From: Christensenellales bacterium
Lineage (GTDB): Bacteria; Bacillota; Clostridia; Christensenellales; UBA1242
Length of the DNA stretch: 64,000 bases
NCBI GenBank assembly: GCA_051889995.1
Contig: JBJFDL010000002.1
Span: 145,051 to 209,050, forward strand
Direction of reading: 5' to 3'
Shown: piece by piece, positions 7,199-20,858 of the stretch
How positions within the stretch are numbered: the stretch's first letter is position 1
Layout of the letters: every line of letters starts with the position of its first letter
Translations under genes and position numbers: made by a program
Notes under the pieces: generated by a model
What the model was told of the DNA's origin: nothing
Database searches by the model: none
The model's input: only the letters and a program-made list of their open reading frames with translations

Positions 7199-8674
7199 TT
7201 ATGGCAAATATTCGTCATCGTTTTTTACAGCATTTTCTCCATTCATTATTTCAGATGTGGTAACATTTATCACTCTTCCACAAGATGGTTTAAAGTTTTT
7301 ATTATCATAAACTATCCAAATAATTTCATTGTCATCACCATTATAACTATCATAGCCATCTGTAAAAACAATTCTATTAACTTCTTTTTTTCTTGTAAAA
7401 AATGAGGTCGCATAATCAAAATTTGTCCCATACCCACCAGAAATTTTAAAATTGTCTACATCATTTTTATTGTTTATTTTTTGAAATCCGTAAAAATTAT
7501 TATCAAAACAAGCAACAGAAAGTTTTGTATTTTTTGCAAGAATTTTAATTTGTCTTAAGAAAGAAATTACTAATTCTCTCGAAACTGATGCAGAAGTATC
7601 AATTAAAACTTCTGTAAATCTTTCACTATCATCATCGATGTCTTCAAGTCTTGATGTTGTCGTTCTTCTTTTTGACCATATTGTTTCAAAATTGTCCATT
7701 TTGTCTTTTAAAATTTTTTTCCAGTCTAATATACTTTTTTCTGTCCCAATATCAATTTTTACATCATTTTTATTCTTATCATTATATATATGTTTCAATT
7801 TTTCAGTTTGTTTTTGTTTAAGTTCTTTGAAAAGTTTTTTCCTTAGTTGTCTGTTTTCTTCAAAAACTTGTTTTTCATTAATACCTATATTTTGAGCATC
7901 TAAACCATCATTTTCTCTTAAATTCTTTCCACCACCAGTTTTTCCTGCTTCTTTAGAATTAGAAGAAAATGAGTTATTAGAACTTTGATTTTGGTCAGAT
8001 GAAATTTTGGCATTGTTGTCTGATTTTTCTTGAGAATCAGCATTTTTTGATTGATTATTTTCTTTTTTGCTTGTTTCTTGTTCATTTTCTTTGGCTTGAT
8101 TTTTTTTGTTTTGCCAAATCTCATGGTTATCTACTAATTTTTTGCCTTCGGTAATGTTTGAATAGTCTTGATTTTCTTGAGAATAACTTATTTCATCACC
8201 AATCGATTGACTTTGAAACTTTTGTTCACTAAATTCTTTTCGATTAGCTTTATTTCTCTCGAGTTGTTGCTTTAATATTTCGTAATATTCTTCGGCTGTA
8301 TAGTTTATTGATTCTGGTTTATTAATGTAGTCTTCTCGAATCACAAAGCCATCTTTTTCTAAATTAGCATTAATTATTGCATCGGTAGCAATATTCCAAA
8401 GTTTTAAATCATCTATATTGTTTTTATTGTTTTCAAAACGATACATGTGTTTGAAAACTATATGTAAAATTTCATGGGCCATTAAAAAGGCTCGGTCGTT
8501 TTCGGTTAAACTAGCAAAATAATCTGGGTCGATGTAAATATTTTTTCCATCTGTTGCTGCTGTTTTAACACTTAAATCTTTTGCGCATATAAAATTTGCA
8601 TTGGCGATTTCTGCACCAAACACCGGATATTTTAACATAATAAATTTTTTTGTTTGTTCTATTAAATCTTCCAT
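7199..8674 (-). CDS. Predicted metallopeptidase fused to a vWA-like domain (DUF2201/COG3864-like architecture)
   Basis: N-terminal HExxH (MAHEILHIVFKH). Long N/Q/S/K/E-rich low-complexity linker. C-terminal MIDAS-like DxSxS (VLIDTSASVS), consistent with a vWA fold. Start lies 8 nt after the stop of the upstream small ORF. Confidence 0.7.
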   Translation of the reverse strand: MEDLIEQTKKFIMLKYPVFGAEIANANFICAKDLSVKTAATDGKNIYIDPDYFASLTENDRAFLMAHEILHIVFKHMYRFENNKNNIDDLKLWNIATDAIINANLEKDGFVIREDYINKPESINYTAEEYYEILKQQLERNKANRKEFSEQKFQSQSIGDEISYSQENQDYSNITEGKKLVDNHEIWQNKKNQAKENEQETSKKENNQSKNADSQEKSDNNAKISSDQNQSSNNSFSSNSKEAGKTGGGKNLRENDGLDAQNIGINEKQVFEENRQLRKKLFKELKQKQTEKLKHIYNDKNKNDVKIDIGTEKSILDWKKILKDKMDNFETIWSKRRTTTSRLEDIDDDSERFTEVLIDTSASVSRELVISFLRQIKILAKNTKLSVACFDNNFYGFQKINNKNDVDNFKISGGYGTNFDYATSFFTRKKEVNRIVFTDGYDSYNGDDNEIIWIVYDNKNFKPSCGRVINVTTSEIMNGENAVKNDDEYLP

Positions 8675-8682
8675 TCAAACAC

Positions 8683-9078
8683 CTACATACACATTAAAGC
8701 CAATTTTCTAATTTCATCTGATAATTTATTAAAATTATCTTCGTTTTCAATAGTTAAAGCAATAATGATATTTTCTGGTAATTTATAACCGTTAAATTCT
8801 CTATCTTTAATCAAGCCAACGAATCTATCTTGCATATCAAAATCTGCTTTATCCATATTATTAATAACAAGATAGCCTATTTCAACTCTTTCACTTAAAT
8901 TGTTTATTTTTTCTTCAAAAATTAATGTTCCATTATTAAATAAAAACTCATTAGAGATATTTGCTTGAATTGAAACTAATTTCTTTAAATTTTTAAAATT
9001 GTCTTCTTTCACAACTACGCATTGCCCTTTTGAGCAGTGTTTTAAAATAAATAAATTAATGTCAATACTTTTTTTCAT
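8683..9078 (-). CDS. Small hypothetical protein (131 aa) between the ATPase and the vWA-peptidase
   Basis: I prefer the ATG at 9078, which has GGTGGAG upstream and lies 1 nt after the ATPase stop at 9080-9082. The track start at 9114 overlaps the ATPase. The segment YLVINNMDKADFDMQDRFVGLIKDREFNGYKLPENIIIALT resembles the Walker-B-to-sensor-1 part of AAA_5 ATPases, but no P-loop is present. Confidence 0.6.
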   Translation of the reverse strand: MKKSIDINLFILKHCSKGQCVVVKEDNFKNLKKLVSIQANISNEFLFNNGTLIFEEKINNLSERVEIGYLVINNMDKADFDMQDRFVGLIKDREFNGYKLPENIIIALTIENEDNFNKLSDEIRKLALMCM

Positions 9079-9079
9079 A

Positions 9080-11392
9080 CTACTCCACCTTTTCAAATTC
9101 TCTTTTTTTAGCATTTAGTTCTTCAATTTTTAGATATCTTTCCTCATCTTTTGTCCAAATTAAATCAAATATTTCTAAAAATTCAGGAGAACATTTCTCT
9201 CTAATAAAATTTCTAACCTTTTCAACATTTTCAATGTCTACCGATAGAAGCGACATAGTGCATGCGACTTTCTCACTTATTGTTGTTGGTAAATCATTAG
9301 TTGTATAAGTATCATCAACAATTTCTTCTACAGTTATTGGTTCATTGTTATAAAAATCTGCAAAGGCAACTGCCCATTCTGGTCTTAACATTCTAAGCAA
9401 CATATTTTTAAAATTCATTTCAATATCTTCCGAATCGATTGCTCCATTAGAATATTCCTTTTCAAAGTGATATAACCAATTTGAAATATGTTCCCAGTTT
9501 CTTGGGTCATTTGTTCTTCCTGCATCTTCATATATTGTTGGGTTATTTTCACCAACGTCTGGTCCTTCAATAAAATACGACAAATTTTCATCTAAACCTT
9601 TATTTAAAGTTTTCATTTTTAAGCGATTTTGTTCATATTTTGATAAAATAAACCCTATTACCTTTGGATGTAATTCTCTTGGAATCGCGTATTCAAAAAT
9701 CCATTCTTGAACATTAGGTTCAACATCAATAATTGCAGAAAAACGTTTTTGAAGTGGAGATGATAGTTCTTCAGCTGATTGTGAAAACATTTTTGGATTT
9801 CCTGTTGCAACAACAACCATATTGTCTGGAAATTTAATACCACTTCCACACTCTAAAAATTTATCTAATACTAAACTAAAAACTAATGATTGAATTCTTG
9901 AATCTACATTCAATAGTTCATCTAAAAGCAAAACAGCTTTTTTATCACTAATTTTGGCTCTTTCGCTAATTATTGGAGCAAGTTCAAACAATTTTTGTGG
10001 GTCATCTCTCATTATCTTCTTTTCTTCTTCTGTTGCCCATGTTTCAAAAATTAATCTTGCATAGATTGGTGGAATTGATTTTCCTTTTGCTACGTCCGTT
10101 GACCCCATTATTAATTCTGGTAACATATTTCTAAATAATCTTAGATAAACCAAATTATATCCATATTCTTCGCACAAATCTCTAACTCTTTGTGTTTTAC
10201 CAATACCACTAGCTCCTCTAATCAAAACTGGTGCTCCAATATCAATTAACATTTTTAACTCATCTGTAACACTCATCTTGCCCATTTTAAAATCAGATTG
10301 TAATTTTTTTGGTGCTAGTTTTTGTAAACGTGTTTGCCTTGTTTTAGGCTCTTGTTTGGATTGATTTTCAATGTTTAACAAGATGCCGTCAAATGCTTCA
10401 TTCAAAAAGCCTTTGTTTTTAAAGTTGTAATTTATGTCAGTTTTGAACTGACTGTTTCCGTTACCTTGATTTAGTTCTTCATCCAAATCATAACTATTCA
10501 AAAATGCTCTAATTATGCTGTTTTGCCACATTGAACAATTTTTCATACTAAAGCTTGTATGAAATGGAATTCCAGCAATTATTGTGTCTTTGGCCTTTAC
10601 ATCAATATATTTTGCCTTTCCTGTTCCAATTGGATTTATTTCTTCTGGAAGCTCATTCCAATTTTTAATTTTCCACTCAATAGGCTCAACTTTTACCCAC
10701 AAAAAAGTTTCATCTTGGGGCGCCTTCGTTCCATCACAATATTCGCTATTATCATTTTTCTTTTTGGTTAAGACTCTAACATATTTTTGTCCTTCGTGTT
10801 CAAACTCAGAGTGTGATATCACTGCTCCATTTTGATCCATTCTTCCAGTGTATGTCTTGCCAGTCGAAGCAAGCTTATTTAAAGAATAAAGATTTTCAAG
10901 TTCTTTATTCTTCTTCTCTCCAACAAATGTTTTGGGATATTCACCAAATTGAATAATATATTCCTTTTTATTTTTATTATTTACAATATCATAAATTTTA
11001 AAAAATTTATTTGAAATTTTTTGCGCAGAAATAACAGATGAAACATTTAAGTGTAAAGAAGGACATAATCCTTCAATGTTTGTGCTTACATTGTAAGCAC
11101 CAAACTTACCTAAATGATCAATAATATTCACAAAAAATTGAGAGTAATCAGAAAAAGGCGCAGAACGAAGCCATTGATAACAAGATTTTCTATTTGAAAC
11201 ATCATCGCCTGTTTCGATCATACATGCTCCATTCATAACAGCATAGTCGGTTGGATATGCAATTCTTTCAATGTCTGAAAATTTTTCAACTTCATTTTTA
11301 GCATCTAAATAAACTAAATCTTGTGTTGAAATGTTTTTTCTCAAATATTCGTCATCTAGTTTAGTTGGTATAATAAATTTTGAAATATCCAT
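9080..11392 (-). CDS. AAA+ ATPase (MoxR/AAA_5-like) with a ~350 aa N-terminal non-ATPase domain
   Basis: Walker A GASGIGKT, Walker B AVLLLDELLNVD, sensor-1-like VVATGNP. The N-terminal half carries CYQWLRSAP, GLCPSLHLN, PIEWKIKNW and SIIRAFLNSY. I recognise these as the pattern of the DUF6273-type domain (from memory, unverified). Confidence 0.7.
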   Translation of the reverse strand: MDISKFIIPTKLDDEYLRKNISTQDLVYLDAKNEVEKFSDIERIAYPTDYAVMNGACMIETGDDVSNRKSCYQWLRSAPFSDYSQFFVNIIDHLGKFGAYNVSTNIEGLCPSLHLNVSSVISAQKISNKFFKIYDIVNNKNKKEYIIQFGEYPKTFVGEKKNKELENLYSLNKLASTGKTYTGRMDQNGAVISHSEFEHEGQKYVRVLTKKKNDNSEYCDGTKAPQDETFLWVKVEPIEWKIKNWNELPEEINPIGTGKAKYIDVKAKDTIIAGIPFHTSFSMKNCSMWQNSIIRAFLNSYDLDEELNQGNGNSQFKTDINYNFKNKGFLNEAFDGILLNIENQSKQEPKTRQTRLQKLAPKKLQSDFKMGKMSVTDELKMLIDIGAPVLIRGASGIGKTQRVRDLCEEYGYNLVYLRLFRNMLPELIMGSTDVAKGKSIPPIYARLIFETWATEEEKKIMRDDPQKLFELAPIISERAKISDKKAVLLLDELLNVDSRIQSLVFSLVLDKFLECGSGIKFPDNMVVVATGNPKMFSQSAEELSSPLQKRFSAIIDVEPNVQEWIFEYAIPRELHPKVIGFILSKYEQNRLKMKTLNKGLDENLSYFIEGPDVGENNPTIYEDAGRTNDPRNWEHISNWLYHFEKEYSNGAIDSEDIEMNFKNMLLRMLRPEWAVAFADFYNNEPITVEEIVDDTYTTNDLPTTISEKVACTMSLLSVDIENVEKVRNFIREKCSPEFLEIFDLIWTKDEERYLKIEELNAKKREFEKVE

Positions 11393-11825: not shown

Positions 11826-12142
11826 ATCAAAAGAAATATTTAGGAGATAGACTTGGAGATACTGATAGATTATTCTGTACAGAAGATGGAAAAGATATAT
11901 CTCCTGGATTATTCAGAGTATGGCCACAAAAAACACTCGCAAAGGCAGGCTTGCCAAAGGTAACATTACACTCTCTAAGGCACACAAACATAACACTACA
12001 ACTAGTAGCAGGAGTAGACGTGAAAACAGTATCTGCCCGTGCAGGACACTCAAAAGCATCCACCACAAGCGACTTCTACAGCCACTTCATAAAGAACTCA
12101 GACATCCACGCAAGTGAGATATTAAATAAAATATTTGAGTGA
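11826..12142 (+). pseudogene. 3' remnant of a tyrosine recombinase (integrase) gene
   Basis: The frame opens after a TAA at ~11823 and encodes only the C-terminal catalytic part: ...LFCTEDGKDISPGLF...VTLHSLRHTNITLQLVAGVDVKTVSARAGHSKASTTSDFYSHF (HxxR, GH and catalytic Y). No N-terminal or core-binding domain and no proper start. Visibly more GC-rich than its surroundings. Confidence 0.75.
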
Positions 12143-12220
12143 AATTTGATAAATGAATGTTTTTTATCACAACCATATACATTTTGAAAAACTATATGTT
12201 ATAATTAATTAGAGGTGGTT

Positions 12221-13591
12221 ATGGATATTAAATTTAACGGATTTGCAAATAATGTTATTAAGGATGGAGATCAATATTCTTATTTCTTTGATGGAGAGAT
12301 TTTACATTTAAACCGTATAAAAGAAGTTTCTGGTGTAGAATATTCTTTTATTAATAAACAAATATCGGTATTACAAACGACAAAGCATGATGGTGGTAAT
12401 GTTGTATTATTTGATTGTATTGAAAGATGCATGGGTTTATCTAATGATGAATTAGAAATAAAACCTTCTTATATATTTGAATCAAAATATCAAAATTATC
12501 AATTCGATAAGTTTTCTGGGATTGTTTGTTACGGAAAATGGATAAACAAATTGTTTCCTCCAAGTCAAATTGTAGAATATGATAGTTTGAATTATGAGCA
12601 TAACAAAGAAACATTTTATCAATGTGCAAGAGATGGTTCAAAGACGATAAAACTAAAAAAGTGGGATGATGTGGATAAAAAATTTAAGTATAAGGTTAAT
12701 AGCGAAGAAATTGAAATATCCTTTAATATTTCATCTCCAGGAACAATAAGAGAAGAGGATGAAAACCTTGGTGAGATAAAATCCTTATTTGAATTAAAAT
12801 TATCTAATAGTCATAACATTACTGAAGTTAAAGATTATTACTTAATTATAAGAAAGTTTTTTCAATTTTTAACAAACAGACAAGACATTTTGTTTGATGA
12901 GATTCATATTTTACAATCATGTGAGGTAGGAAAATATGAAAGAATAGGATGTTTTTATGATTTAAATAATAAATCCTCAGAAATTCCTAAAAAGATGCAT
13001 CTTGCTAAACATTACTTTGGTAACATTACTAAATTATTCAAATATATTAGCAATGAAAAGATTAACTTTAATCATATTCCTAAAAACAATTTAGAACATA
13101 GATATGTAACACCAGAACAATATGTAAATTGTTGTGGTTCTTTTGAATATAACTATAAAAAAGTATTTAAAGATGAGCCATTAGATGAAAAAACTAATCA
13201 AATCATAAATGATTTATCTAAATTTTTAGAATCTCAAAGCAATTATAATAGCAAACAAAGAAAAATCATAAAAAAGATTATAGACGATTTAAACAAGACT
13301 TCTCAATCCGTAGAAAAGAAATATAACAAATGTTTAAAGCGATATAAAGATGTCGTTTCACCATTTATCAATGAATTAATAAATCATTATGAAATAGCAA
13401 AAACTCCACAATTACTAGGTTCTCATTTCTCTTCTTATAGAAACCATAAAGCCCATGGTGAGTTAACCCCATTTACAAAAGAAGCAGTTTGTGCCTATGT
13501 AGTTGCAAATGTGATAATAGAATGTTTAATTTTAGATGCCTGTGGATTTAGCATTGAAGAGATGAAAGAGATTGTTAAAAATAAATATTAA
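12221..13591 (+). CDS. HEPN-motif protein with a large N-terminal domain (ApeA-like architecture)
   Basis: ATG at 12221 preceded by AGAGGTGG. The C-terminal region contains an Rx4H HEPN signature in a typical context (SSYRNHKAHGELTPF). The ~400 aa N-terminal region has no motif I recognise. Confidence 0.55.
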   Translation: MDIKFNGFANNVIKDGDQYSYFFDGEILHLNRIKEVSGVEYSFINKQISVLQTTKHDGGNVVLFDCIERCMGLSNDELEIKPSYIFESKYQNYQFDKFSGIVCYGKWINKLFPPSQIVEYDSLNYEHNKETFYQCARDGSKTIKLKKWDDVDKKFKYKVNSEEIEISFNISSPGTIREEDENLGEIKSLFELKLSNSHNITEVKDYYLIIRKFFQFLTNRQDILFDEIHILQSCEVGKYERIGCFYDLNNKSSEIPKKMHLAKHYFGNITKLFKYISNEKINFNHIPKNNLEHRYVTPEQYVNCCGSFEYNYKKVFKDEPLDEKTNQIINDLSKFLESQSNYNSKQRKIIKKIIDDLNKTSQSVEKKYNKCLKRYKDVVSPFINELINHYEIAKTPQLLGSHFSSYRNHKAHGELTPFTKEAVCAYVVANVIIECLILDACGFSIEEMKEIVKNKY

Positions 13592-13624: not shown

Positions 13625-13630
13625 GTTAAT

Positions 13631-13678
13631 TGGTACAACCGAGATGATTTGAACATCCGACCTATCGCTTAGGAGGCG
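13631..13678 (-). pseudogene. Detached 3' half of a tRNA-Arg(CCT) gene (anticodon loop to CCA)
   Basis: Minus strand reads CGCCTCCTAA-GCGAT-AGGTC-GGATG-TTCAAAT-CATCT-CGGTTGT-A-CCA. This is an anticodon loop and 3' stem arm, a variable loop, a T arm, a 3' acceptor arm and an encoded CCA. There is no 5' half upstream of it. Confidence 0.7.
13668..13678. repeat. att core copy (left junction)
   Basis: CTTAGGAGGCG, identical to 20994-21004. Corresponds to the anticodon loop plus stem arm of tRNA-Arg(CCT). Confidence 0.75.
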
Positions 13679-13845
13679 TTTGTCGGCTCACAAAATACTT
13701 CAAATAACTTGTGAAACTTGTAGTCTTATTAAATGTTAGAATAAAATTCATTTAGTATTGTTAAAAATGAAAGTTTTTTCAAATAAAATTAAAAATAAAA
13801 AGTTGGCTCACAGTATGGCGTGAGATGTCTAAACCATCTTTATAC

Positions 13846-13900: not shown

Positions 13901-14767
13901 ATGGAAAAGAGCAATTTAATAAAAGATAATCATTTAGTTAAAGTAAAAATAATCGGCAACGATTTAGAACTTTATAACATAAACACTTGTAATTATAAAC
14001 CAACAATAAAAAAATTGCAAGGTAGAAAACATATAATTTTAAGAACAGGTGAAATTGTAGAAGAAAAGCAATCTCTTATAAGAGGCGAAAATGCTAGGAC
14101 TTTGTTAGAAAGTAATATACGGCTACGAGATTTAATAAAAGAAAATACGATTGAGTTATGGAAAACGCTTTTAATAACTCTAACCTACCGAGATAAAATA
14201 CTTGATATAAAGAAAATCAAACTTGATTTCAAACACTTTATAAACTATTTAAGAAAGCATTTTACACAATTTGGCAACATTGAATATATACAAGCCATTG
14301 AGCCATTTGACGATTTACAAGGTTATCATTTACACGCAATACTATTTTTCAATGATAGCAAAGCAAAAGTCTTTATGGGCTTTGAAGTGCTTGAAAAAGC
14401 GTGGAAAAATGGTTTTGCAAGTATCTGTCAGCCAAAAGATGAAAAATCAATGTATTTATATATTACGCCACATTTAGAAAATGAAGTCAGCGATAAAAAT
14501 ATAGATATGCACCAAAAAGCATTAAATCAAATGCAACTACCAGCAGGCACAAACTTATATAGTTATTCAAAAGGCATAAAAAAGCCACAAATTTGGACTG
14601 ATAACTATGCAGAAGTCAAAAAGTATTTAGTTGAAAACAAATATGTCTATCAGCGAGAAAACATTTATAAAAATGAAATGTCAACTCTAAAAGGCAACAA
14701 TCTTTATTATTGTAAAGAGTTTTATAAAAAAGAAATGGATGTTAAACCAACGAGAAAGCCGATTTAA
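13901..14767 (+). CDS. HUH-type rolling-circle replication initiator (Rep)
   Basis: Motif 1-like LLITLTY, HUH motif GYHLHAILFF, and downstream Tyr-containing MYLYITPHL. SD GGAG upstream (AAGGAGATAATGATATG). Confidence 0.7.
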   Translation: MEKSNLIKDNHLVKVKIIGNDLELYNINTCNYKPTIKKLQGRKHIILRTGEIVEEKQSLIRGENARTLLESNIRLRDLIKENTIELWKTLLITLTYRDKILDIKKIKLDFKHFINYLRKHFTQFGNIEYIQAIEPFDDLQGYHLHAILFFNDSKAKVFMGFEVLEKAWKNGFASICQPKDEKSMYLYITPHLENEVSDKNIDMHQKALNQMQLPAGTNLYSYSKGIKKPQIWTDNYAEVKKYLVENKYVYQRENIYKNEMSTLKGNNLYYCKEFYKKEMDVKPTRKPI

Positions 14768-14973: not shown

Positions 14974-15285
14974 TTAATTTTTAAGCAGGTTTATTATAGA
15001 GTCTTTTTTGACTTGATTTACATTTTTAAGCAAGTCAATTATCTCTTTATCTTTTTGATAATCATAGATATTGTAGTAAAAGAACTCTAACGGAGTTGAG
15101 CCACACGCTTCAATTATTTCAAGTAAGGCAGAAACGGACGGCTCAAAACTATCATTTTTAGACTCAAGGCGAGAGATATAAGCACCATTTTTACCAATAC
15201 GCAAACTTAAATCTCTGGCAGATAAGCCTGCTTTAATTCTTAACTGACTAATACGCTCAACAACTTCATTTTTATTCATAGGCAT
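14974..15285 (-). CDS. XRE-family helix-turn-helix transcriptional regulator
   Basis: RISQLRIKAGLSARDLSLRIGKNGAYISRLE is a typical Cro/CI-type HTH. Divergent from the cargo operon. Confidence 0.8.
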   Translation of the reverse strand: MPMNKNEVVERISQLRIKAGLSARDLSLRIGKNGAYISRLESKNDSFEPSVSALLEIIEACGSTPLEFFYYNIYDYQKDKEIIDLLKNVNQVKKDSIINLLKN

Positions 15286-15378
15286 ACCTCACATTTTTAA
15301 CTACTAAAATTATAAGGTATTATTGACCTACACTATCTTGATGATACTTGTAAAAATGACATATTGTGAAATTGTAAT

Positions 15379-15427
15379 GCACTTTTAAGTGCAAAATGTT
15401 GCTTTTAAGTTCATTTTATGCTATACT
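15379..15427 (+). promoter_or_regulatory. Cargo-operon promoter with a candidate operator
   Basis: Perfect 14-bp palindrome GCACTTTTAAGTGC (15379-15392) abuts -35 TTGCTT (15399-15404), a 17-bp spacer and -10 TATACT (15422-15427). Lies in the divergent region next to the XRE gene. Confidence 0.55.
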
Positions 15428-15449
15428 CTATTACATGAGAGGTATAGCT

Positions 15450-16307
15450 ATGAAAGTCGTGTTGAGCAGAAAAGGCGTAGATACTGGAAATAGTAAAATG
15501 TCAAATTTAGTTATAACAAATAATGGTAAAAGTGAAATTGTGATGATACCAATACCTAGTGAAAAAGATAAGGTATCATACAACGATTTAACATTTTCAA
15601 ATGATAAGAATGTAGATTTTTATACAAAGGAATACATAAGAGTTCATAATACTAGGTTGAATGAATTAAAAACAAAGTGCCATGCTGACCCAAATCTATC
15701 TAACTATTTTAATGATTCAAACTTTTTAGGTTCAATAGGTCAAGTTGGCATATCTTTATCACATTTAGAAAAACATAACATAAAAGTTGGAGATATATTT
15801 ATATTCTTTGGGCGTTTTTCATATATGGATTTAATAAACAACCAGCCAAAAATGAGAGAAAAAGATAAACATTTATTATTTGGTTATCTGCAAGTTGGCG
15901 AAATAATTTATCCTAATAAACTCACACCTAATCAAAGAAAAGAATACGAACATAAATATCCTTGGATTGTCAATCAACCACATTGGAATATGGACAAATA
16001 TAAAAATCAAAAAAATAACTGCATTTATGTAGCAAGTGAGAAATGCTCTTTTGATAATTCATTATGTGGTTATGGCACATTTAACTATGATGACGCTTTA
16101 ATTCTAACAAAAGAAAATGAGCCATTATCTCATTGGAGTTTATCGCGCGAAGTATTAAAAGAAGAATTGTCTTATCATAACAAAAACAATGTAAAAGATA
16201 ACTATTTTCAATCGGCACTTCGTGGGCAAGAATTTGTATTTACATATAATGAAAAAGTAAAAAGTTGGGCTGAAAATTTAATTAAAAAATATGGTAAGAG
16301 GGTTTAA
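15450..16307 (+). CDS. Hypothetical protein (286 aa), possibly Nmad3-like (putative nucleotide-modification-associated family)
   Basis: ATG at 15450 preceded by GAGAGG; the track start at 15396 lacks an SD. The N-terminus MKVVLSRKGVDTGNS and a later CHADPN resemble my recollection of Nmad3-family proteins. This is unverified. Confidence 0.45.
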   Translation: MKVVLSRKGVDTGNSKMSNLVITNNGKSEIVMIPIPSEKDKVSYNDLTFSNDKNVDFYTKEYIRVHNTRLNELKTKCHADPNLSNYFNDSNFLGSIGQVGISLSHLEKHNIKVGDIFIFFGRFSYMDLINNQPKMREKDKHLLFGYLQVGEIIYPNKLTPNQRKEYEHKYPWIVNQPHWNMDKYKNQKNNCIYVASEKCSFDNSLCGYGTFNYDDALILTKENEPLSHWSLSREVLKEELSYHNKNNVKDNYFQSALRGQEFVFTYNEKVKSWAENLIKKYGKRV

Positions 16308-16309
16308 TA

Positions 16310-16489
16310 ATGGGAAAAATAAAATGTCCTAAATGTAGTAGTAATAATGTTAAAGATTTGGGTGTAGTAAAGAATAATGATTTCATATCAAAAGCAATTG
16401 GTGCAATAAATTGGGCTGCAAGTGGTGGCAAAAGCAAACACAATTTTCAATGTATAAATTGTAACAATACATTTATAGCGGAAAAATAA
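16310..16489 (+). CDS. 59-aa zinc-ribbon protein (not in the ORF track)
   Basis: ATG 2 nt after the upstream stop. MGKIKCPKCSSNNVKDLG...HNFQCINCNNTFIAEK has CxxC...CxxC. Stop TAA at 16487-16489. Confidence 0.6.
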   Translation: MGKIKCPKCSSNNVKDLGVVKNNDFISKAIGAINWAASGGKSKHNFQCINCNNTFIAEK

Positions 16490-16505
16490 TTATTTGAGGT
16501 TAATT

Positions 16506-17705
16506 ATGAAAAAGCGAACAGGTTTAGCATTAGCAGGTGGAATACTTGAAATTATAGCAGGAACTTATCTTTTGATATATGCACTTTGGGCTTTATCATT
16601 TTATTTACAAATACCAAACGGACTGCAAATATATAATTGGGAAATGCTAATAGTTTTTGGCGTTTTAATCTTTTTTGGTATTATGGCAATTATAGGCAAA
16701 ACAAAGAAAGATTTAGCCACTTATGGCATATTAAATTTGTTATATGTTGGCATGCTTATTTTTAGAGCAATACAGACGAACGCAACAAATGTTATATGGG
16801 TATTTTCATTTGAAATGATTTTACTAGTCATAGCGTCAATGTTTTTCTTTTTTAGCAAAAAAAGTGAATATGAAATAGTTTATGAAGAAAAGTTAAAAGA
16901 ATATAAAGCAAACGAGCCACAAGAACACATAAAACTTAAAAATATATTTACATGGTTAAGTGCTGTAATTGTTATTTTAATTGGTTTATCAATGTTTTTA
17001 TGGCGAATAGGTATCATTATAGGTTTAGTGGCTATTATTGGCTTTATTTTAATGATTATACTTATACCTAGAAAAGATAAAAGCGAATATAGTTGGAATG
17101 CAAACATTGTATTTAGTAGCATAGCAATTTTTATATGTTTTGTTTGTTCTATATTTGTGCCAGCAGGATTTTATTCAGAAATAAGTGTGAATGTAAATAC
17201 TTCTATAATAACTTACCCCCTTATGCAAGATACATATATTTACTATAACAACGAAAGCAATCAATATGAAATTTTAATAGCTGAACAATATACTGATTAT
17301 GACGAACATAGCAATGAAATACAAACAACCATATATTTTGTTGACGGAAAAGAAGCATATGAAGAACTGCCATCAGGTGCAAATAAAGTTTTAGATAAAT
17401 TAAACTATTATGAGCCATCAACTGAAAGTAGAGTTATCGCATATAGTTTTCACGACAATGAACTAGACAGGGTTAGATTTTACTCAGAACTAGGCATTGT
17501 CTATGATACTTTACCACAACCAAAAATTTCTAAAACTCAATCAACTGATAAAACAATCTTTTATATAATAAGCGTCGCAGGTGCTGTCATAGGGTTAATC
17601 ATAATACTAGGCACTAAAAATGCACAACTAGGCATTGAAATAAACAAACGACTTAAAGAAGAAGAAAGGAAAAAGACATACGAAAAATATCAAAACAAAA
17701 ATTAA
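16506..17705 (+). CDS. Polytopic membrane protein (~8 predicted TM helices) of unknown function
   Basis: ATG at 16506 with GAGGT 5 nt upstream. Hydrophobic helices run through aa ~10-125 and ~155-235, followed by a ~140 aa polar segment, a final TM and a charged tail (EERKKTYEKYQNKN). Confidence 0.7.
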   Translation: MKKRTGLALAGGILEIIAGTYLLIYALWALSFYLQIPNGLQIYNWEMLIVFGVLIFFGIMAIIGKTKKDLATYGILNLLYVGMLIFRAIQTNATNVIWVFSFEMILLVIASMFFFFSKKSEYEIVYEEKLKEYKANEPQEHIKLKNIFTWLSAVIVILIGLSMFLWRIGIIIGLVAIIGFILMIILIPRKDKSEYSWNANIVFSSIAIFICFVCSIFVPAGFYSEISVNVNTSIITYPLMQDTYIYYNNESNQYEILIAEQYTDYDEHSNEIQTTIYFVDGKEAYEELPSGANKVLDKLNYYEPSTESRVIAYSFHDNELDRVRFYSELGIVYDTLPQPKISKTQSTDKTIFYIISVAGAVIGLIIILGTKNAQLGIEINKRLKEEERKKTYEKYQNKN

Positions 17706-17780: not shown

Positions 17781-17811
17781 AAAAAATAAAATCGGCAAAA
17801 TCAAGCCGATT
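17781..17811 (-). terminator. Rho-independent terminator of the 17820-18455 gene
   Basis: AATCGGC-N8-GCCGATT hairpin with a plus-strand A-run upstream, giving a U-run on the minus transcript. Confidence 0.7.
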
Positions 17812-17819
17812 TCAATGGC

Positions 17820-18455
17820 TCACTTAGCAGTGGGCTTTTTTGTTGGGTTGCAATAAAATTCTAAAAAGTCATTTAAAAATTCAAATAATAGTTGTCTTAT
17901 TAACAATTTTTGGTCGTTCAATGGTTTTATAATTTGTTTTTTGTGTCCTGCATTGTCAACAGAATTTATATTTTCATCATTTATATATTCTTCAAGTTGT
18001 TTCTTTTTAAAATATAATTTTCTATATTTATCTATACTATTTTTAAATTCATTCAAAAACTCACTATATTTAGGGTAAGAATAAAGAATTCTATACATTG
18101 GCTGAGTATAATCAAAACAATCTTCAAATAGTCTTGCGTCAATATATTTCGGGTATTCGGCTACATTGTTCAATGCTAATTCAATAGTTTGATACTCTTC
18201 ATTCAAATTTACATTATCTATTTGATATAAAAAACTAAAAAAAGAAATTGGTTGGTCAAGTTTAGAAGGCTCTGCTACTTTAAGTTTTGATAAAGTGTTT
18301 ATAAATTTTATTACAAAATCAAACTTGAGTTCTACTTTACCTTGTTCAATTTTTTTATAGTTTTCAAGTGACATATTTAATTCTTGTGCCATTTCCCTTT
18401 GGGTTAACTTGTATACTTCATTTCTGTAATCTTGAATAACTTCTTGTGGTGTCAT
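17820..18455 (-). CDS. HTH (XRE-like) regulator with an uncharacterised ~140 aa C-terminal domain
   Basis: N-terminal LTQREMAQELNMSLENYKKIEQGK HTH. Divergent from the xis-orf-int module. Confidence 0.7.
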   Translation of the reverse strand: MTPQEVIQDYRNEVYKLTQREMAQELNMSLENYKKIEQGKVELKFDFVIKFINTLSKLKVAEPSKLDQPISFFSFLYQIDNVNLNEEYQTIELALNNVAEYPKYIDARLFEDCFDYTQPMYRILYSYPKYSEFLNEFKNSIDKYRKLYFKKKQLEEYINDENINSVDNAGHKKQIIKPLNDQKLLIRQLLFEFLNDFLEFYCNPTKKPTAK

Positions 18456-18745: not shown

Positions 18746-18937
18746 ATGGGCTACAGAACAATTAACGAATGTTATAAAATCTTACTAAAAAATGATAATG
18801 AAACTTGCATAACTCCATATTTTTTAAGAACACTTTGTAAAAACGGAGTTATAAAAACAATCAATGCAGGTGGCAAATATTTGATAAATATGAAAAGTCT
18901 TTTAGACTATTTAGAATTAGATTACAAGGAGATATAA
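18746..18937 (+). CDS. Excisionase-type small DNA-binding protein (Xis-like)
   Basis: 63 aa. YFLRTLCKNGVIKTINAGGKYLINMKSLLDYL resembles excisionase-family HTH proteins. SD AAGGAGG upstream. Lies upstream of int on the same strand. Confidence 0.6.
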   Translation: MGYRTINECYKILLKNDNETCITPYFLRTLCKNGVIKTINAGGKYLINMKSLLDYLELDYKEI

Positions 18938-18939
18938 AT

Positions 18940-19278
18940 ATGAATAATAATTATAAAATAATACGATTTGAAAGGGACCTTGACATATTCCCTGACTACA
19001 TAATAGTCAAAGTTATGGCAATAGAAAACAGCACAAACTTGATAAGGCTGTTTATTAGTAAGCCATTTATGATAAAAGAAAAATGGGATAAACAACAAGT
19101 GCAGACAAGAGTTGAAATCTTTGTTGATAAGTTTGTCGGTTCAATAGATATAAGGCAAGATTATGACCTTATAGATTTTGACGAGAACTTGAAGTTTACA
19201 CAATGTCAAAATGGCAGATTTTACAATCGCCATTTAATAGACAATAATGGAAAATTAAAAAAAGGAGTGTGGTTTTGA
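18940..19278 (+). CDS. Hypothetical protein (112 aa) in the xis-int module
   Basis: Starts 2 nt after the xis-like stop. Its TGA is separated from the int ATG by one nucleotide (TGATATG). No recognisable motif. Confidence 0.5.
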   Translation: MNNNYKIIRFERDLDIFPDYIIVKVMAIENSTNLIRLFISKPFMIKEKWDKQQVQTRVEIFVDKFVGSIDIRQDYDLIDFDENLKFTQCQNGRFYNRHLIDNNGKLKKGVWF

Positions 19279-19279
19279 T

Positions 19280-20683
19280 ATGGCAACATATAGTAAAAGA
19301 GTGTTACAAGACGGCACAATAAATTATTGTATTCAAACATATATAAGAGATGCAAATGGCAAGAGAATATATAAGTGCACCACTTATAAAAATGAAGATA
19401 ATTTGTCTGGTAAAAAACTAGACAAAGCACTTCATGCTTTTGGTGAAGCATGGGAAGAAAGAATTAAAACAGGTAAAAACAATAAGTATGAAGATTACAC
19501 TTTTAATCAAATGGCTGACTTATGGCTTGACACAAGAAAAGACAATATGTCTAAAAACTATTATGTTAGAGCAAGTGAGTGTTTGGTAAAACTTAAAGCA
19601 TTTTTTGGCAATACAAAATTTTCAGACATAAGAGCCATTCATGTGCAAGACTTTTTTAGAGAGTTGAGTAAATATGAATTTACTACAAAAAAGGCTCGTA
19701 TTAAACCAAATAAATTAGATTATGTAAATAACATTATACTAAAGTATGGTCTTAGAAAAGCCGACAAAGACGGCGAAACAACAAGAGCAACGCTTTATTA
19801 TGCACGAAAAGGCGAAGTCATAAATTATGAAAGTGCTGTTATCATTTGTAAAAAATTTGGTTTTAGATTAAATGAAACTTTTGACATAATAGAAGAAACA
19901 CATAGATATAAAAAAGAAACAATCTTAAAATATCAAAGAGTTTTAAGTGCCATTTTCGCCTATGCAATTAGGTCTGAATTGGTGAAAACAAACTACGCTG
20001 CTAAATACTACACAAAAGATAGTATCGGTGGCGAGAAAGCCAAAGAAATACCTATTTTAGATAATAGTGAGTATGACAGACTTATTGAAACTCTAAACAA
20101 TGATAATGATTTATTTCACACAATCCCCATATATTTACTGGCTACACTTGGTTTAAGAACCTGTGAGGTTTGTGGTTTGCAGTGGCGAGATATAAATTTT
20201 GATAAGAAAACCGTCAGCATAAAAAGAGATAGGACTTATGTCAATAAAGAATTTGGTTGTCAAGTTGATGATACAAAAACAAAGTATTCAAAACGAACTT
20301 TGACAATGTGTGATTTGTTATTAGATAAGTTAAAAGAGTTTAAATCAATTTATGATGAACTTAAAAATGGCGATAAAGAGTTTGACGCAACAAATGACGG
20401 CTTTATATTTTGTGATATAAAAGGTCAACCAGTATTCCCACATCACTTAAACGAAATACTAAAAAAGTATTTGATGATGGCAGATTGTAAAATTGTGTCG
20501 TGCCATAAAATAAGGCATAGTTGGATAACACGCCTTATAAGTAATGGTGCACCTGTAAACATTGTTTCAAAGTTAGCAGGTCATGCTGGAATAGATACGA
20601 CTTTGAAATTATACGCACATTATTACGGCGAATTAGATAACTCACTTGAAATGTTAAATGAGATATTTATAAGTCAAAAATAA
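19280..20683 (+). CDS. Tyrosine recombinase / integrase
   Basis: Catalytic residues in context: GLRTCEVCGLQWRDI (R), HKIRHSW (HxxR), AGHAGIDTTLKLYAHYY (H...Y). Adjacent to a tRNA gene. Confidence 0.88.
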   Translation: MATYSKRVLQDGTINYCIQTYIRDANGKRIYKCTTYKNEDNLSGKKLDKALHAFGEAWEERIKTGKNNKYEDYTFNQMADLWLDTRKDNMSKNYYVRASECLVKLKAFFGNTKFSDIRAIHVQDFFRELSKYEFTTKKARIKPNKLDYVNNIILKYGLRKADKDGETTRATLYYARKGEVINYESAVIICKKFGFRLNETFDIIEETHRYKKETILKYQRVLSAIFAYAIRSELVKTNYAAKYYTKDSIGGEKAKEIPILDNSEYDRLIETLNNDNDLFHTIPIYLLATLGLRTCEVCGLQWRDINFDKKTVSIKRDRTYVNKEFGCQVDDTKTKYSKRTLTMCDLLLDKLKEFKSIYDELKNGDKEFDATNDGFIFCDIKGQPVFPHHLNEILKKYLMMADCKIVSCHKIRHSWITRLISNGAPVNIVSKLAGHAGIDTTLKLYAHYYGELDNSLEMLNEIFISQK

Positions 20684-20783: not shown

Positions 20784-20858
20784 TGGTGTTCCCCGCGGTA
20801 ATCGAAACCACATCTAATCCTTAGGAGGGATTTGTTCTATCCGTTGAACTAGGGGAAC
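20784..20858 (-). tRNA. tRNA-Arg (anticodon CCT), intact, CCA encoded
   Basis: Hand-folded cloverleaf: GTTCCCC-TA-GTTC-AACGGATA-GAAC-A-AATCC-CTCCTAA-GGATT-AGAT-GTGGT-TTCGATT-ACCGC-GGGGAAC-A-CCA. All stems pair, with one G-U in the T stem. Confidence 0.85.

Follow-up and report, generated by a model that had tools for sequence, protein, structure and literature searches.

A repressor-gated gene unit in a small tRNA-Arg integrative element of a Christensenellales bacterium is probably a composite of an Nmad3/zinc-ribbon cassette and an independent membrane-protein gene

Do three tightly packed genes of an integrative element, encoding an Nmad3-family protein, a small zinc ribbon, and a membrane protein with eight transmembrane (TM) helices, form one functional system, or have they come together from separate sources? 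The question is raised by positions 15450 to 17705 of the window, i.e., the whole 64,000-nucleotide stretch of Christensenellales bacterium contig JBJFDL010000002.1 analyzed here, where the three genes are divergent from a gene for an XRE-family helix-turn-helix (HTH) regulator. The element is ~7.2 kb long and has nine genes, encoding a rolling-circle Rep, the XRE protein, the Nmad3 protein (gene 1), the zinc ribbon (gene 2), the membrane protein (gene 3), a second HTH protein, an Xis-like protein, a 112-amino-acid protein, and an integrase. A first reading of the letters alone (the original prediction) had proposed that a soluble sensor and a membrane effector work here as a single three-gene abortive-infection system. 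This was not supported, the parts being found separately. We propose, with a probability of about 0.6, that the locus is a composite repressor-gated unit in which a defense-type Nmad3/zinc-ribbon cassette was inserted before an independently acting backbone gene, gene 3, because each part occurs elsewhere without the others.

The genes of the unit and its downstream end are as follows.

15450 to 16307, forward strand: gene 1, Nmad3-family protein of 285 amino acids (PF18754 match)
16310 to 16489, forward strand: gene 2, 59-amino-acid CxxC...CxxC zinc ribbon (from the open reading frame [ORF] list)
16506 to 17705, forward strand: gene 3, 8-TM membrane protein of 399 amino acids (from the ORF list and hydropathy)
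17787 to 17836, both strands: back-to-back terminator-like hairpins ending the cassette and the convergent HTH gene

The three same-strand ORFs, with gaps of 2 nucleotides between genes 1 and 2 and 16 nucleotides between genes 2 and 3, were confirmed from the ORF list and the sequence, and most of the other assignments in the original prediction held as well. The Nmad3 family, proposed for gene 1, proved correct over the full length of PF18754; the zinc ribbon of gene 2 is real, and so are the approximately eight TM helices and the polar domain of gene 3, the latter measuring ~125 amino acids. The predicted cargo position between replication and integration modules was borne out by Rep on one side and Xis/Int on the other. 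As also predicted, the locus matched no named defense, toxin-antitoxin, or transport system (Pfam, PADLOC, NCBIfam, and PHROG), and neither gene 1 nor gene 3 mapped to a transporter with a known substrate.

Gene 1 is preceded by the ribosome-binding site GAGAGG (15437 to 15442). A longer ORF opens at position 15396, which is probably not the true start, because the conserved N-terminus of gene 1, MK(V/I)(V/I)LSRKG, begins at 15450. Genes 1 to 3 appear to share one promoter and one terminator, and no break in base composition was seen at the cassette. The ratios of nonsynonymous to synonymous substitution rates (dN/dS), computed against three near-identical relatives, were 0.09 to 0.12 for Rep, 0 to 0.09 for XRE, 0.22 to 0.25 for Nmad3, and 0.08 to 0.37 for gene 3, and the zinc ribbon had zero amino acid changes with respect to its near-identical siblings. 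All three genes are under purifying selection, and with dN/dS values of 0.08 to 0.37 across the parts, the genes are therefore real.

The genomic contexts of Nmad3, gene 3, and XRE homologues were compared in order to see which parts travel together. The related loci, designated by L numbers, fell into the following combinations.

L085/86: XRE, Nmad3, zinc ribbon, and gene 3 (gene 3, 93% identical)
L091/92: XRE, Nmad3, zinc ribbon, and gene 3 (Nmad3, 94 to 95%; gene 3, 64%)
L003/L090: XRE, Nmad3, zinc ribbon, and gene 3 (Nmad3, 54%; gene 3, 36%)
L005: XRE, Nmad3, zinc ribbon, and gene 3 (gene 3 decayed)
L087; L088/89; L093 and L111-118; L094/95 (four lineages): XRE and gene 3, without Nmad3
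L001: XRE and Nmad3, without gene 3, followed by a 106-amino-acid protein, two zinc-ribbon/TM peptides, and a lipoprotein
L006: Nmad3 and zinc ribbon, without XRE and without gene 3
L119-122: XRE (75% identical) divergent from a GT4-conflict glycosyltransferase, with a second glycosyltransferase and heptose-nucleotide genes on the XRE strand

Thus, the co-occurrence of the three genes, on which the single-system proposal depended, is partly upheld: the triad recurs in the first four of these contexts, but within one element lineage only.

The leader of gene 3 points to how the present arrangement may have arisen. The leaders of the window and of the gene-3-only loci agree up to ...ACATGAGA, which reaches the Nmad3 ribosome-binding site, and again at ATTTATTTG, just before the gene 3 start. 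Because leader sequence is shared with the gene-3-only loci on both of its sides, the ~1.05-kb cassette of Nmad3 and zinc ribbon sits inside the gene 3 leader, which is ~70 nucleotides long in most relatives. The gene-3-only loci have ~50 extra nucleotides of leader with a conserved hairpin and, after it, a T-run, TGACATGAGATGTCAGTTTTT (L088, 4930 to 5000; L094; L093). This hairpin, which could be an attenuator, is interrupted by the Nmad3 cassette in the window.

The regulatory elements upstream of the cassette are the following.

14974 to 15285, reverse strand: XRE-family HTH regulator of 103 amino acids (HTH_3, E 6.5e-8), divergent from the cassette
15341 to 15370, reverse strand: XRE promoter-like site TTCACA-18-TATCAT, enclosing the nearly invariant block ACTTGTAAAAATGACAT (15346 to 15362)
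15378 to 15393: operator-like inverted repeat O1, TGCACTTTTAAGTGCA, with 7-bp arms and a 2-nucleotide center
15399 to 15413: degenerate operator-like O2, TTGCTTTTAAGTTCA, 20 nucleotides from O1 and overlapping the -35 element
15399 to 15427, forward strand: rightward promoter TTGCTT-17-TATACT (-35, 15399 to 15404; -10, 15422 to 15427)

The rightward promoter and the divergent XRE gene were both as originally predicted, and the position of the promoter is conserved in nine aligned loci, in the majority of which the -10 element reads TATAAT. A consensus scanner missed this promoter because its -35 element matches the consensus at three of six positions only. The perfect palindrome that had been described as abutting the -35 element stood in part: the 7-bp inverted arms of O1 are present, but the TT center is nonpalindromic, and the repeat ends 5 nucleotides before the -35 element. 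O1 and O2 can also be read as a direct repeat (CTTTTAAGTGCA / CTTTTAAGTTCA), and in gene-3-only loci O2 takes the form TTGCTTTTAAGTGCA.

One site such as O1 per 64 kb is not unusual by chance, and we consider O1 meaningful because it is conserved across the related loci, not because it is rare in the window. In all related loci examined, whatever their cargo, O1 is conserved as TGCAY-N6-RTGCA, and it is also exact with gene 3 alone or the GT4-conflict glycosyltransferase cluster as cargo. The alignment of the intergenic regions showed as conserved features the block ACTTGTAAAAATKACAT, O1, O2 overlapping the -35 element, and the mostly TATAAT -10 element. Orthologues of XRE are found in every related locus at 74 to 100% identity, and the XRE family comprises 133 clusters at an identity of at least 60%. 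The XRE protein can be placed among XRE-type repressors, as an HTH_3 protein encoded beside conserved inverted repeats that overlap a promoter, and we infer repression of the unit by XRE from the operator geometry and its conservation. Together, the XRE gene, its own promoter, the two operator-like sites, and the rightward promoter form a conserved platform for exchangeable cargo. The usual cargo is gene 3, which in most relatives lies directly behind the platform. In L119-122 (for example, L119, 3629 to 9470), the same platform also serves a surface-glycosylation cargo. The genes on the XRE strand there encode the second glycosyltransferase and GHMP-kinase, nucleotidyltransferase/HAD, and SIS proteins, resembling a heptose-nucleotide-like pathway.

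The membrane protein encoded by gene 3 is, from these contexts, a backbone component of the element family and not an Nmad3-specific partner. Hydropathy predicts eight TM helices with the N-terminus inside, and both hydropathy and the AlphaFold2 model (predicted local distance difference test score [pLDDT], 77) place an acidic, β-rich ectodomain of ~125 amino acids between TM7 and TM8. The protein is made up of a conserved N-terminal 4-TM module (residues 1 to 140) and a swappable C-terminal module of three TM helices, the ectodomain, and one TM helix. Between the window and L091, residues 1 to 140 are 98% identical, whereas residues 141 to 348 are 36 to 47% identical, and the synonymous divergence (dS) is 0.15 in the N-terminal part versus 0.96 to 2.5 in the C-terminal part. 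The exchanged stretch covers 16926 to 17550 in the window and 6421 to 7080 in L091, in elements that are otherwise 94 to 100% identical. Because identity and dS shift sharply at residue ~141, the C-terminal module (TM5 to TM7 and the ectodomain) must have been replaced by recombination with a distant allele. In L003, gene 3 is present as two ORFs split at this same module boundary. Positive selection on the ectodomain was considered and rejected: dN/dS is 0.19 to 0.37, and import of a distant allele (dS of 1 to 2.5) explains the divergence.

Gene 3 had no match in Pfam, PADLOC, or PHROG, the sole NCBIfam match was a 17-bit local one, and it mapped to no transporter family (Pfam, NCBIfam, and Foldseek against the PDB). 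A structural identity was also sought with Foldseek against the PDB and rejected, the best E value being 0.34, with Whirly/SSB-like noise. The family is small, with 22 clusters in a collection of 5.8 billion proteins and 33 clusters among 1.84 billion representatives, and no relatives were found in 2.9 million viral contigs. The topology, the recombining ectodomain, and the retention of the gene in decayed elements point to a role at the envelope, in exclusion or surface recognition. In L111-L118 and L093, the XRE/gene 3 pair occurs without Rep or integrase. It is seen in many gut metagenome samples and is fixed at a single chromosomal position, with a glycosyltransferase gene on one side and an HTH/RelA-SpoT-like pair on the other. 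The DNA 3' of XRE in these loci varies by sample, encoding an 83-amino-acid HTH protein and a 177-amino-acid protein, a 698-amino-acid SEC-C protein, or others. These loci resemble a domesticated remnant that continues to serve as a hotspot.

The zinc ribbon (cysteines C6xxC9...C48xxC51) gave generic zinc-ribbon matches only (Pfam, NCBIfam, and PHROG). L085, L091, and L092 have it at 100% identity, and homologues directly follow Nmad3 in L003/L090, L005, and L006, the one in L003/L090 being an uncalled small ORF. Among 76 Nmad3 loci, the number used for both the zinc-ribbon and TM censuses, five had a zinc-ribbon-like ORF after Nmad3, compared with 6 of 621 control gene ends, and these were mostly in the subclade of the window. 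Of the parts of the unit, the zinc ribbon alone tracks Nmad3, and only within that subclade.

Gene 1 matches PF18754 over profile positions 1 to 246 of 247 (E 5.9e-45; 154.3 bits, with a gathering cutoff of 27) and had zero matches in PADLOC, NCBIfam, or PHROG. An alignment of 32 homologues, down to 30% identity, has 24 invariant positions, all 24 of which are present in the window protein; these include S6, K8, G9, D11, H78-x-D80-P81, Q98, D115, H178, N190, and Q260-E261. C77 is nearly invariant, giving a Cys-His-x-Asp-Pro motif, and H141 and H178 are invariant or near-invariant. Such a conservation pattern resembles that of an enzyme, and the AlphaFold2 model (pLDDT, 92.9; predicted template-modeling score [pTM], 0.91) likewise predicts a compact α/β, enzyme-like protein. 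The top Foldseek hits in the PDB were EVE/THYN1, PH1033, and ASCH, all weak (E 0.25 to 1.2), and those in the viral library were also weak, namely ASCH (E 0.014; probability, 0.92; TM-score, 0.21 to 0.33), DUF3850, and SRA. The resulting PUA-like/ASCH resemblance is a hint from the model, consistent across searches but statistically weak. A profile search of PDB sequences with Nmad3 returned a thioredoxin match only, which was rejected as spurious. C-terminal extensions of 120 to 150 amino acids occur in three to four Nmad3 proteins (L098, 4462 to 5661; L104, 758 to 2068; L058, 7001 to 8221); they have no Pfam match, and these fusion partners might hint at function. In L001 (6855 to 8137) and L013 (7731 to 8108), Nmad3 is followed by a shared soluble protein of 106/125 amino acids that belongs to no family.

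A scan with one genome per species identified at least 520 bacterial and archaeal Nmad3 relatives, which hardly ever occur together with gene 3. Neighborhoods were counted for the best 80 of these loci. Nmad2 was the sole recurrent partner, found in 25 of the 80 loci, mostly immediately upstream with an overlap of 1 to 4 nucleotides, and its identity was confirmed with Pfam (PF18753, E 7e-40). A profile built from 21 Nmad2 loci gave zero matches in the window, L001-L006, and L013, and homology between Nmad3 and Nmad2 was rejected (hhalign probability, 0.1%). A general theme of Nmad3 with a membrane effector failed too, there being no recurrent multi-TM neighbor among the 76 distant loci. The 150 Nmad3-neighbor proteins include type I methylases, KAP/PifA, MADS components, Schlafen-type helicases, RT-proteases, and radical-SAM/viperin-like proteins, and in a Clostridium butyricum megaplasmid Nmad3 has serine recombinases on one side and AbiJ-NTD4 and ABC-3C genes on the other. 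Nmad3 was found in none of 50,697 phage genomes and in 13 of 2.9 million viral contigs.

The relatives of the element carry recognizable defense-type genes in the slot between Rep and XRE. L087 (2065 to 4257) and L001 (3196 to 5376) encode a full-length PifA-like KAP NTPase (PADLOC E, ~6e-72), L088 (2586 to 4394) and L091 (2328 to 4277) encode OLD/AriA/GajA-like ATPases, and L013 (3757 to 6390) encodes a STAND (NB-ARC) NTPase. In L085 and L005, the slot holds genes for proteins of 283 to 290 amino acids of no known family, and it is empty in the window and L092. These sibling genes lend indirect support to the original idea of mobile-element cargo with a possible defense function. In PADLOC-DB 2.0.0, genes 1 to 3 had zero matches at an E value of ≤0.1, and the two regulators had generic HTH matches only. 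The locus also does not resemble a type II toxin-antitoxin system, since XRE is divergent and searches of Pfam, NCBIfam, and PADLOC with genes 1 to 3 returned no toxin family.

Among described systems, DS-4, found with DefensePredictor, is a validated antiphage system composed of a thymidylate synthase-like protein, a dNMP kinase, a 5-hmdU DNA kinase, a TIR protein, and Nmad2 (PMC13092281). It is the sole validated defense system that we found to include an Nmad ("nucleotide modification associated") domain, so this naming group can join immunity systems. However, DS-4 carries Nmad2, which has no detectable homology to Nmad3, and its other components are absent from the window. Nmad5 is an anti-Tmn protein, and the paper on polyvalent proteins does not name Nmad domains. 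The window Nmad3 is a full-length member of the Nmad3 family, which includes the common two-gene Nmad2-Nmad3 operon, and other members are likewise found in variable neighborhoods rich in mobile elements or defense genes; the window differs from that operon in lacking Nmad2 and in having a zinc ribbon, an XRE-controlled promoter, and a predicted cotranscribed membrane gene.

Small mobile elements of the P2/P4 type have hotspots in which variable cargo lies between conserved core genes. The element family of the window similarly has two variable slots flanked by conserved genes: slot A, between Rep and XRE, holds PifA, OLD-like, STAND, or other genes or is empty, and slot B, between the XRE promoter and gene 3, holds Nmad3 and the zinc ribbon or is empty. 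Unlike in P2/P4-type hotspots, the backbone consists of a rolling-circle Rep and a tyrosine integrase at tRNA-Arg in spore-forming Firmicutes, and the slot B cargo brings no promoter but would use the element's own repressor-controlled one. Membrane proteins for superinfection or entry exclusion (Sie/Ltp type) are encoded beside the repressor in temperate phages and integrative elements. Gene 3 is like these in being membrane bound, in having an outward variable domain, in its position beside the regulatory module, and in outlasting element decay. It differs in having eight TM helices, whereas the exclusion proteins typically have one or two TM helices or a lipid anchor, and it resembles no known protein in sequence or structure.

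In the composite arrangement that we favor, an XRE dimer would bind O1 and O2, block the -35 element, and hold the unit at a low level until some signal relieves repression. Nmad3 and the zinc ribbon would form a self-contained module acting on a nucleotide or a (modified) nucleic acid base, a role suggested by the enzyme-like conservation and the weak PUA-like fold hint, and the cassette would take part in defense-type conflict with phages or rival elements. Gene 3 would act alone at the envelope and not as the effector of Nmad3. A defense-type role for the cassette is plausible by association, because sibling elements carry defense genes in the adjacent slot and Nmad3 avoids phage genomes.

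The alternative closest to the original prediction, in which Nmad3 with its zinc ribbon senses infection, the 8-TM protein damages the membrane, and XRE silences one abortive-infection system, would explain the shared promoter, the shared terminator, and the tight spacing of the genes. It would also fit the retention of the triad in L091/92, despite the swapped gene 3 module, and in the diverged L003/L090, as well as the persistence of the unit in elements that have lost Rep and Int. We nevertheless regard it as unlikely because its parts are separable. At least four lineages have an intact, conserved gene 3 behind the same promoter with no Nmad3, more than 500 species have Nmad3 with neither gene 3 nor a recurrent multi-TM neighbor, and L001 has kept XRE and Nmad3 while other small genes replace gene 3. 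In addition, Nmad3 is ~20 times as common as the gene 3 family, the large ectodomain of gene 3 suggests an outward-facing role and not a pore triggered from inside, and no PADLOC model was matched. Very unlikely, in our judgment, is an addiction or stabilization pair of XRE as the repressor of a toxic membrane protein, gene 3, which would keep the element or its remnant in the chromosome, with Nmad3 and the zinc ribbon as passengers. The two genes are divergent and not cotranscribed, XRE lacks antitoxin-type features beyond the HTH, and gene 3, which is large and has a folded ectodomain and a recombining C-terminal module, is unlike small holin-like toxins; moreover, the same XRE platform drives glycosyltransferase genes. 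The pairing of XRE and gene 3 is, however, invariant in all gene 3 contexts and survives in decayed elements fixed in a common gut species, and the hairpin and T-run of the gene-3-only leaders suggest tight control.

It is doubtful that the Nmad3 cassette serves nucleotide or nucleic acid metabolism (modification or repair of element DNA or RNA, antirestriction or self-marking, or nucleotide salvage) and not immunity. The element has no methylase, glycosylase, kinase, or other modification enzyme, Nmad3 is nearly absent from phage genomes, where DNA hypermodification pathways concentrate, and the cassette slot is facultative, with defense genes borne by sibling elements. Still, according to the family annotation, Nmad3 owes its Pfam name to an association with nucleotide-modification genes, Nmad3 is often in an operon with Nmad2, and the PUA-like/ASCH resemblance would suit base recognition or processing. 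The metabolic character of many distant Nmad3 neighbors (glyoxalase, OsmC, and acyl-CoA dehydrogenase, all housekeeping proteins) also favors this alternative, and it is one of several points that weigh against the composite, defense-type interpretation. The defense assignment is guilt by association only. The Foldseek searches with the gene 1 model found nothing at an E value of ≤0.001 in the PDB or the viral library, and in the literature searched we found no mention of Nmad3 or PF18754 and no demonstrated function. Gene 3 has no homology to known exclusion proteins. Repression by XRE is a prediction from geometry and conservation, and the persistence of the triad down to identities of 54% (Nmad3) and 36% (gene 3) in L003/L090 means that cooperation is possible. 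A stronger form of the composite interpretation, that mobile elements have in Nmad3 and the zinc ribbon a new, self-contained module for immunity that recognizes or processes a nucleotide or modified base of invading DNA or RNA, with Nmad2-Nmad3 as the commoner sister form, is put forward only tentatively.

Nmad3 as a Pfam family and mosaic repressor-gated cargo as a kind are already known, and Nmad3 can be regarded as a reasonable defense candidate. If this stronger interpretation is true, it would provide the first function for Nmad3, which occurs in more than 500 species of Bacteria and Archaea, and the XRE-gated slot before gene 3 would be an unrecognized cargo expression site in a family of small integrative elements at tRNA-Arg. 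Protection by the cassette against phages or rival elements would add a new enzyme family to bacterial immunity; otherwise, the locus would be ordinary mosaic cargo of a mobile element. XRE, the promoter, Nmad3, and the zinc ribbon together span ~1.6 kb, a compact, naturally regulated, and clonable version of Nmad3, and the sibling elements that have the platform and lack the cassette are natural "minus" controls. The comparison also defines an element family of ~7 to 9 kb in gut Clostridia with two exchangeable cargo slots and a backbone membrane protein with an exchanged outer domain.

The remaining features of the element are the following.

13631 to 13685, reverse strand: left end, tRNA-like 3' fragment TGGTACAACCGAGATGATTTGAACATCCGACC...CTTAGGAGG (sequence inspection)
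13901 to 14767, forward strand: rolling-circle Rep/relaxase-like protein (REP_ORF2-G2P, E 3.5e-10; PHROG 3419, E 6e-9)
17820 to 18455, reverse strand: second HTH protein of 211 amino acids (HTH_3, E 1.3e-4), divergent from the xis-like gene, orf112, and int
18746 to 20683, forward strand: recombination module with a 63-amino-acid Xis-like protein, the 112-amino-acid protein, and a tyrosine integrase (467 amino acids)
20784 to 20858, reverse strand: tRNA-Arg(CCU), target and right end of the element (ARAGORN)

No exact att repeats were found in the window with an 11-nucleotide seed, and the boundaries of the element were for this reason set from sibling homology and the tRNA-like fragment. DNA homology to the sibling elements (L085/L091/L092) starts at 13628 to 13668 and ends at 20827 to 20842. 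The left-end fragment shares the anticodon-loop stretch CTTAGGAGG with tRNA-Arg and probably represents the tRNA-Arg target's displaced 3' part, on the attL side; in L087, a 45-nucleotide copy of the tRNA 3' part flanks the left side of the element. The integrase gene (19280 to 20683) lies beside tRNA-Arg, and integrase Pfam domains were recorded in sibling loci. A tyrosine integrase by a tRNA gene, a tRNA 3' fragment, and Rep, whose PHROG 3419 match is annotated "rolling circle DNA replication initiation," identify the locus as an integrative element at a tRNA gene. Derivation from an inovirus or prophage was rejected, as there is no morphogenesis ATPase or coat gene and searches of viral and phage genomes with gene 3 and Nmad3 were empty or nearly so. 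The position of the second HTH gene is also occupied in sibling elements, and its product is probably a regulator of excision and integration.

The host is a spore-forming Firmicute, and genes for SpoIVB, RecN, CysS, RecD2, and DinB are found nearby. Outside the left end of the element, a 458-amino-acid ORF (12215 to 13591, forward strand) has an R-x4-H motif (RNHKAH) near its C-terminus and a weak PADLOC CARF/HEPN match (E 0.011) and is possibly a HEPN-type abortive-infection gene. Next to it is a C-terminal integrase remnant (11951 to 12142), and the pair looks like what is left of an older island in this tRNA-Arg hotspot. Three codirectional genes on the reverse strand (7199 to 11392) encode a 770-amino-acid AAA_5 (MoxR-like) ATPase, a 143-amino-acid protein, and a 491-amino-acid DUF2201 protein with a putative metallopeptidase and a VWA-like domain, so that a MoxR/VWA-type unit adjoins the mobile-element hotspot. 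On the other side, a few kilobases beyond the right end of the element, the reverse strand holds one ORF of 6976 amino acids (23622 to 44552) that presumably encodes a giant surface protein.

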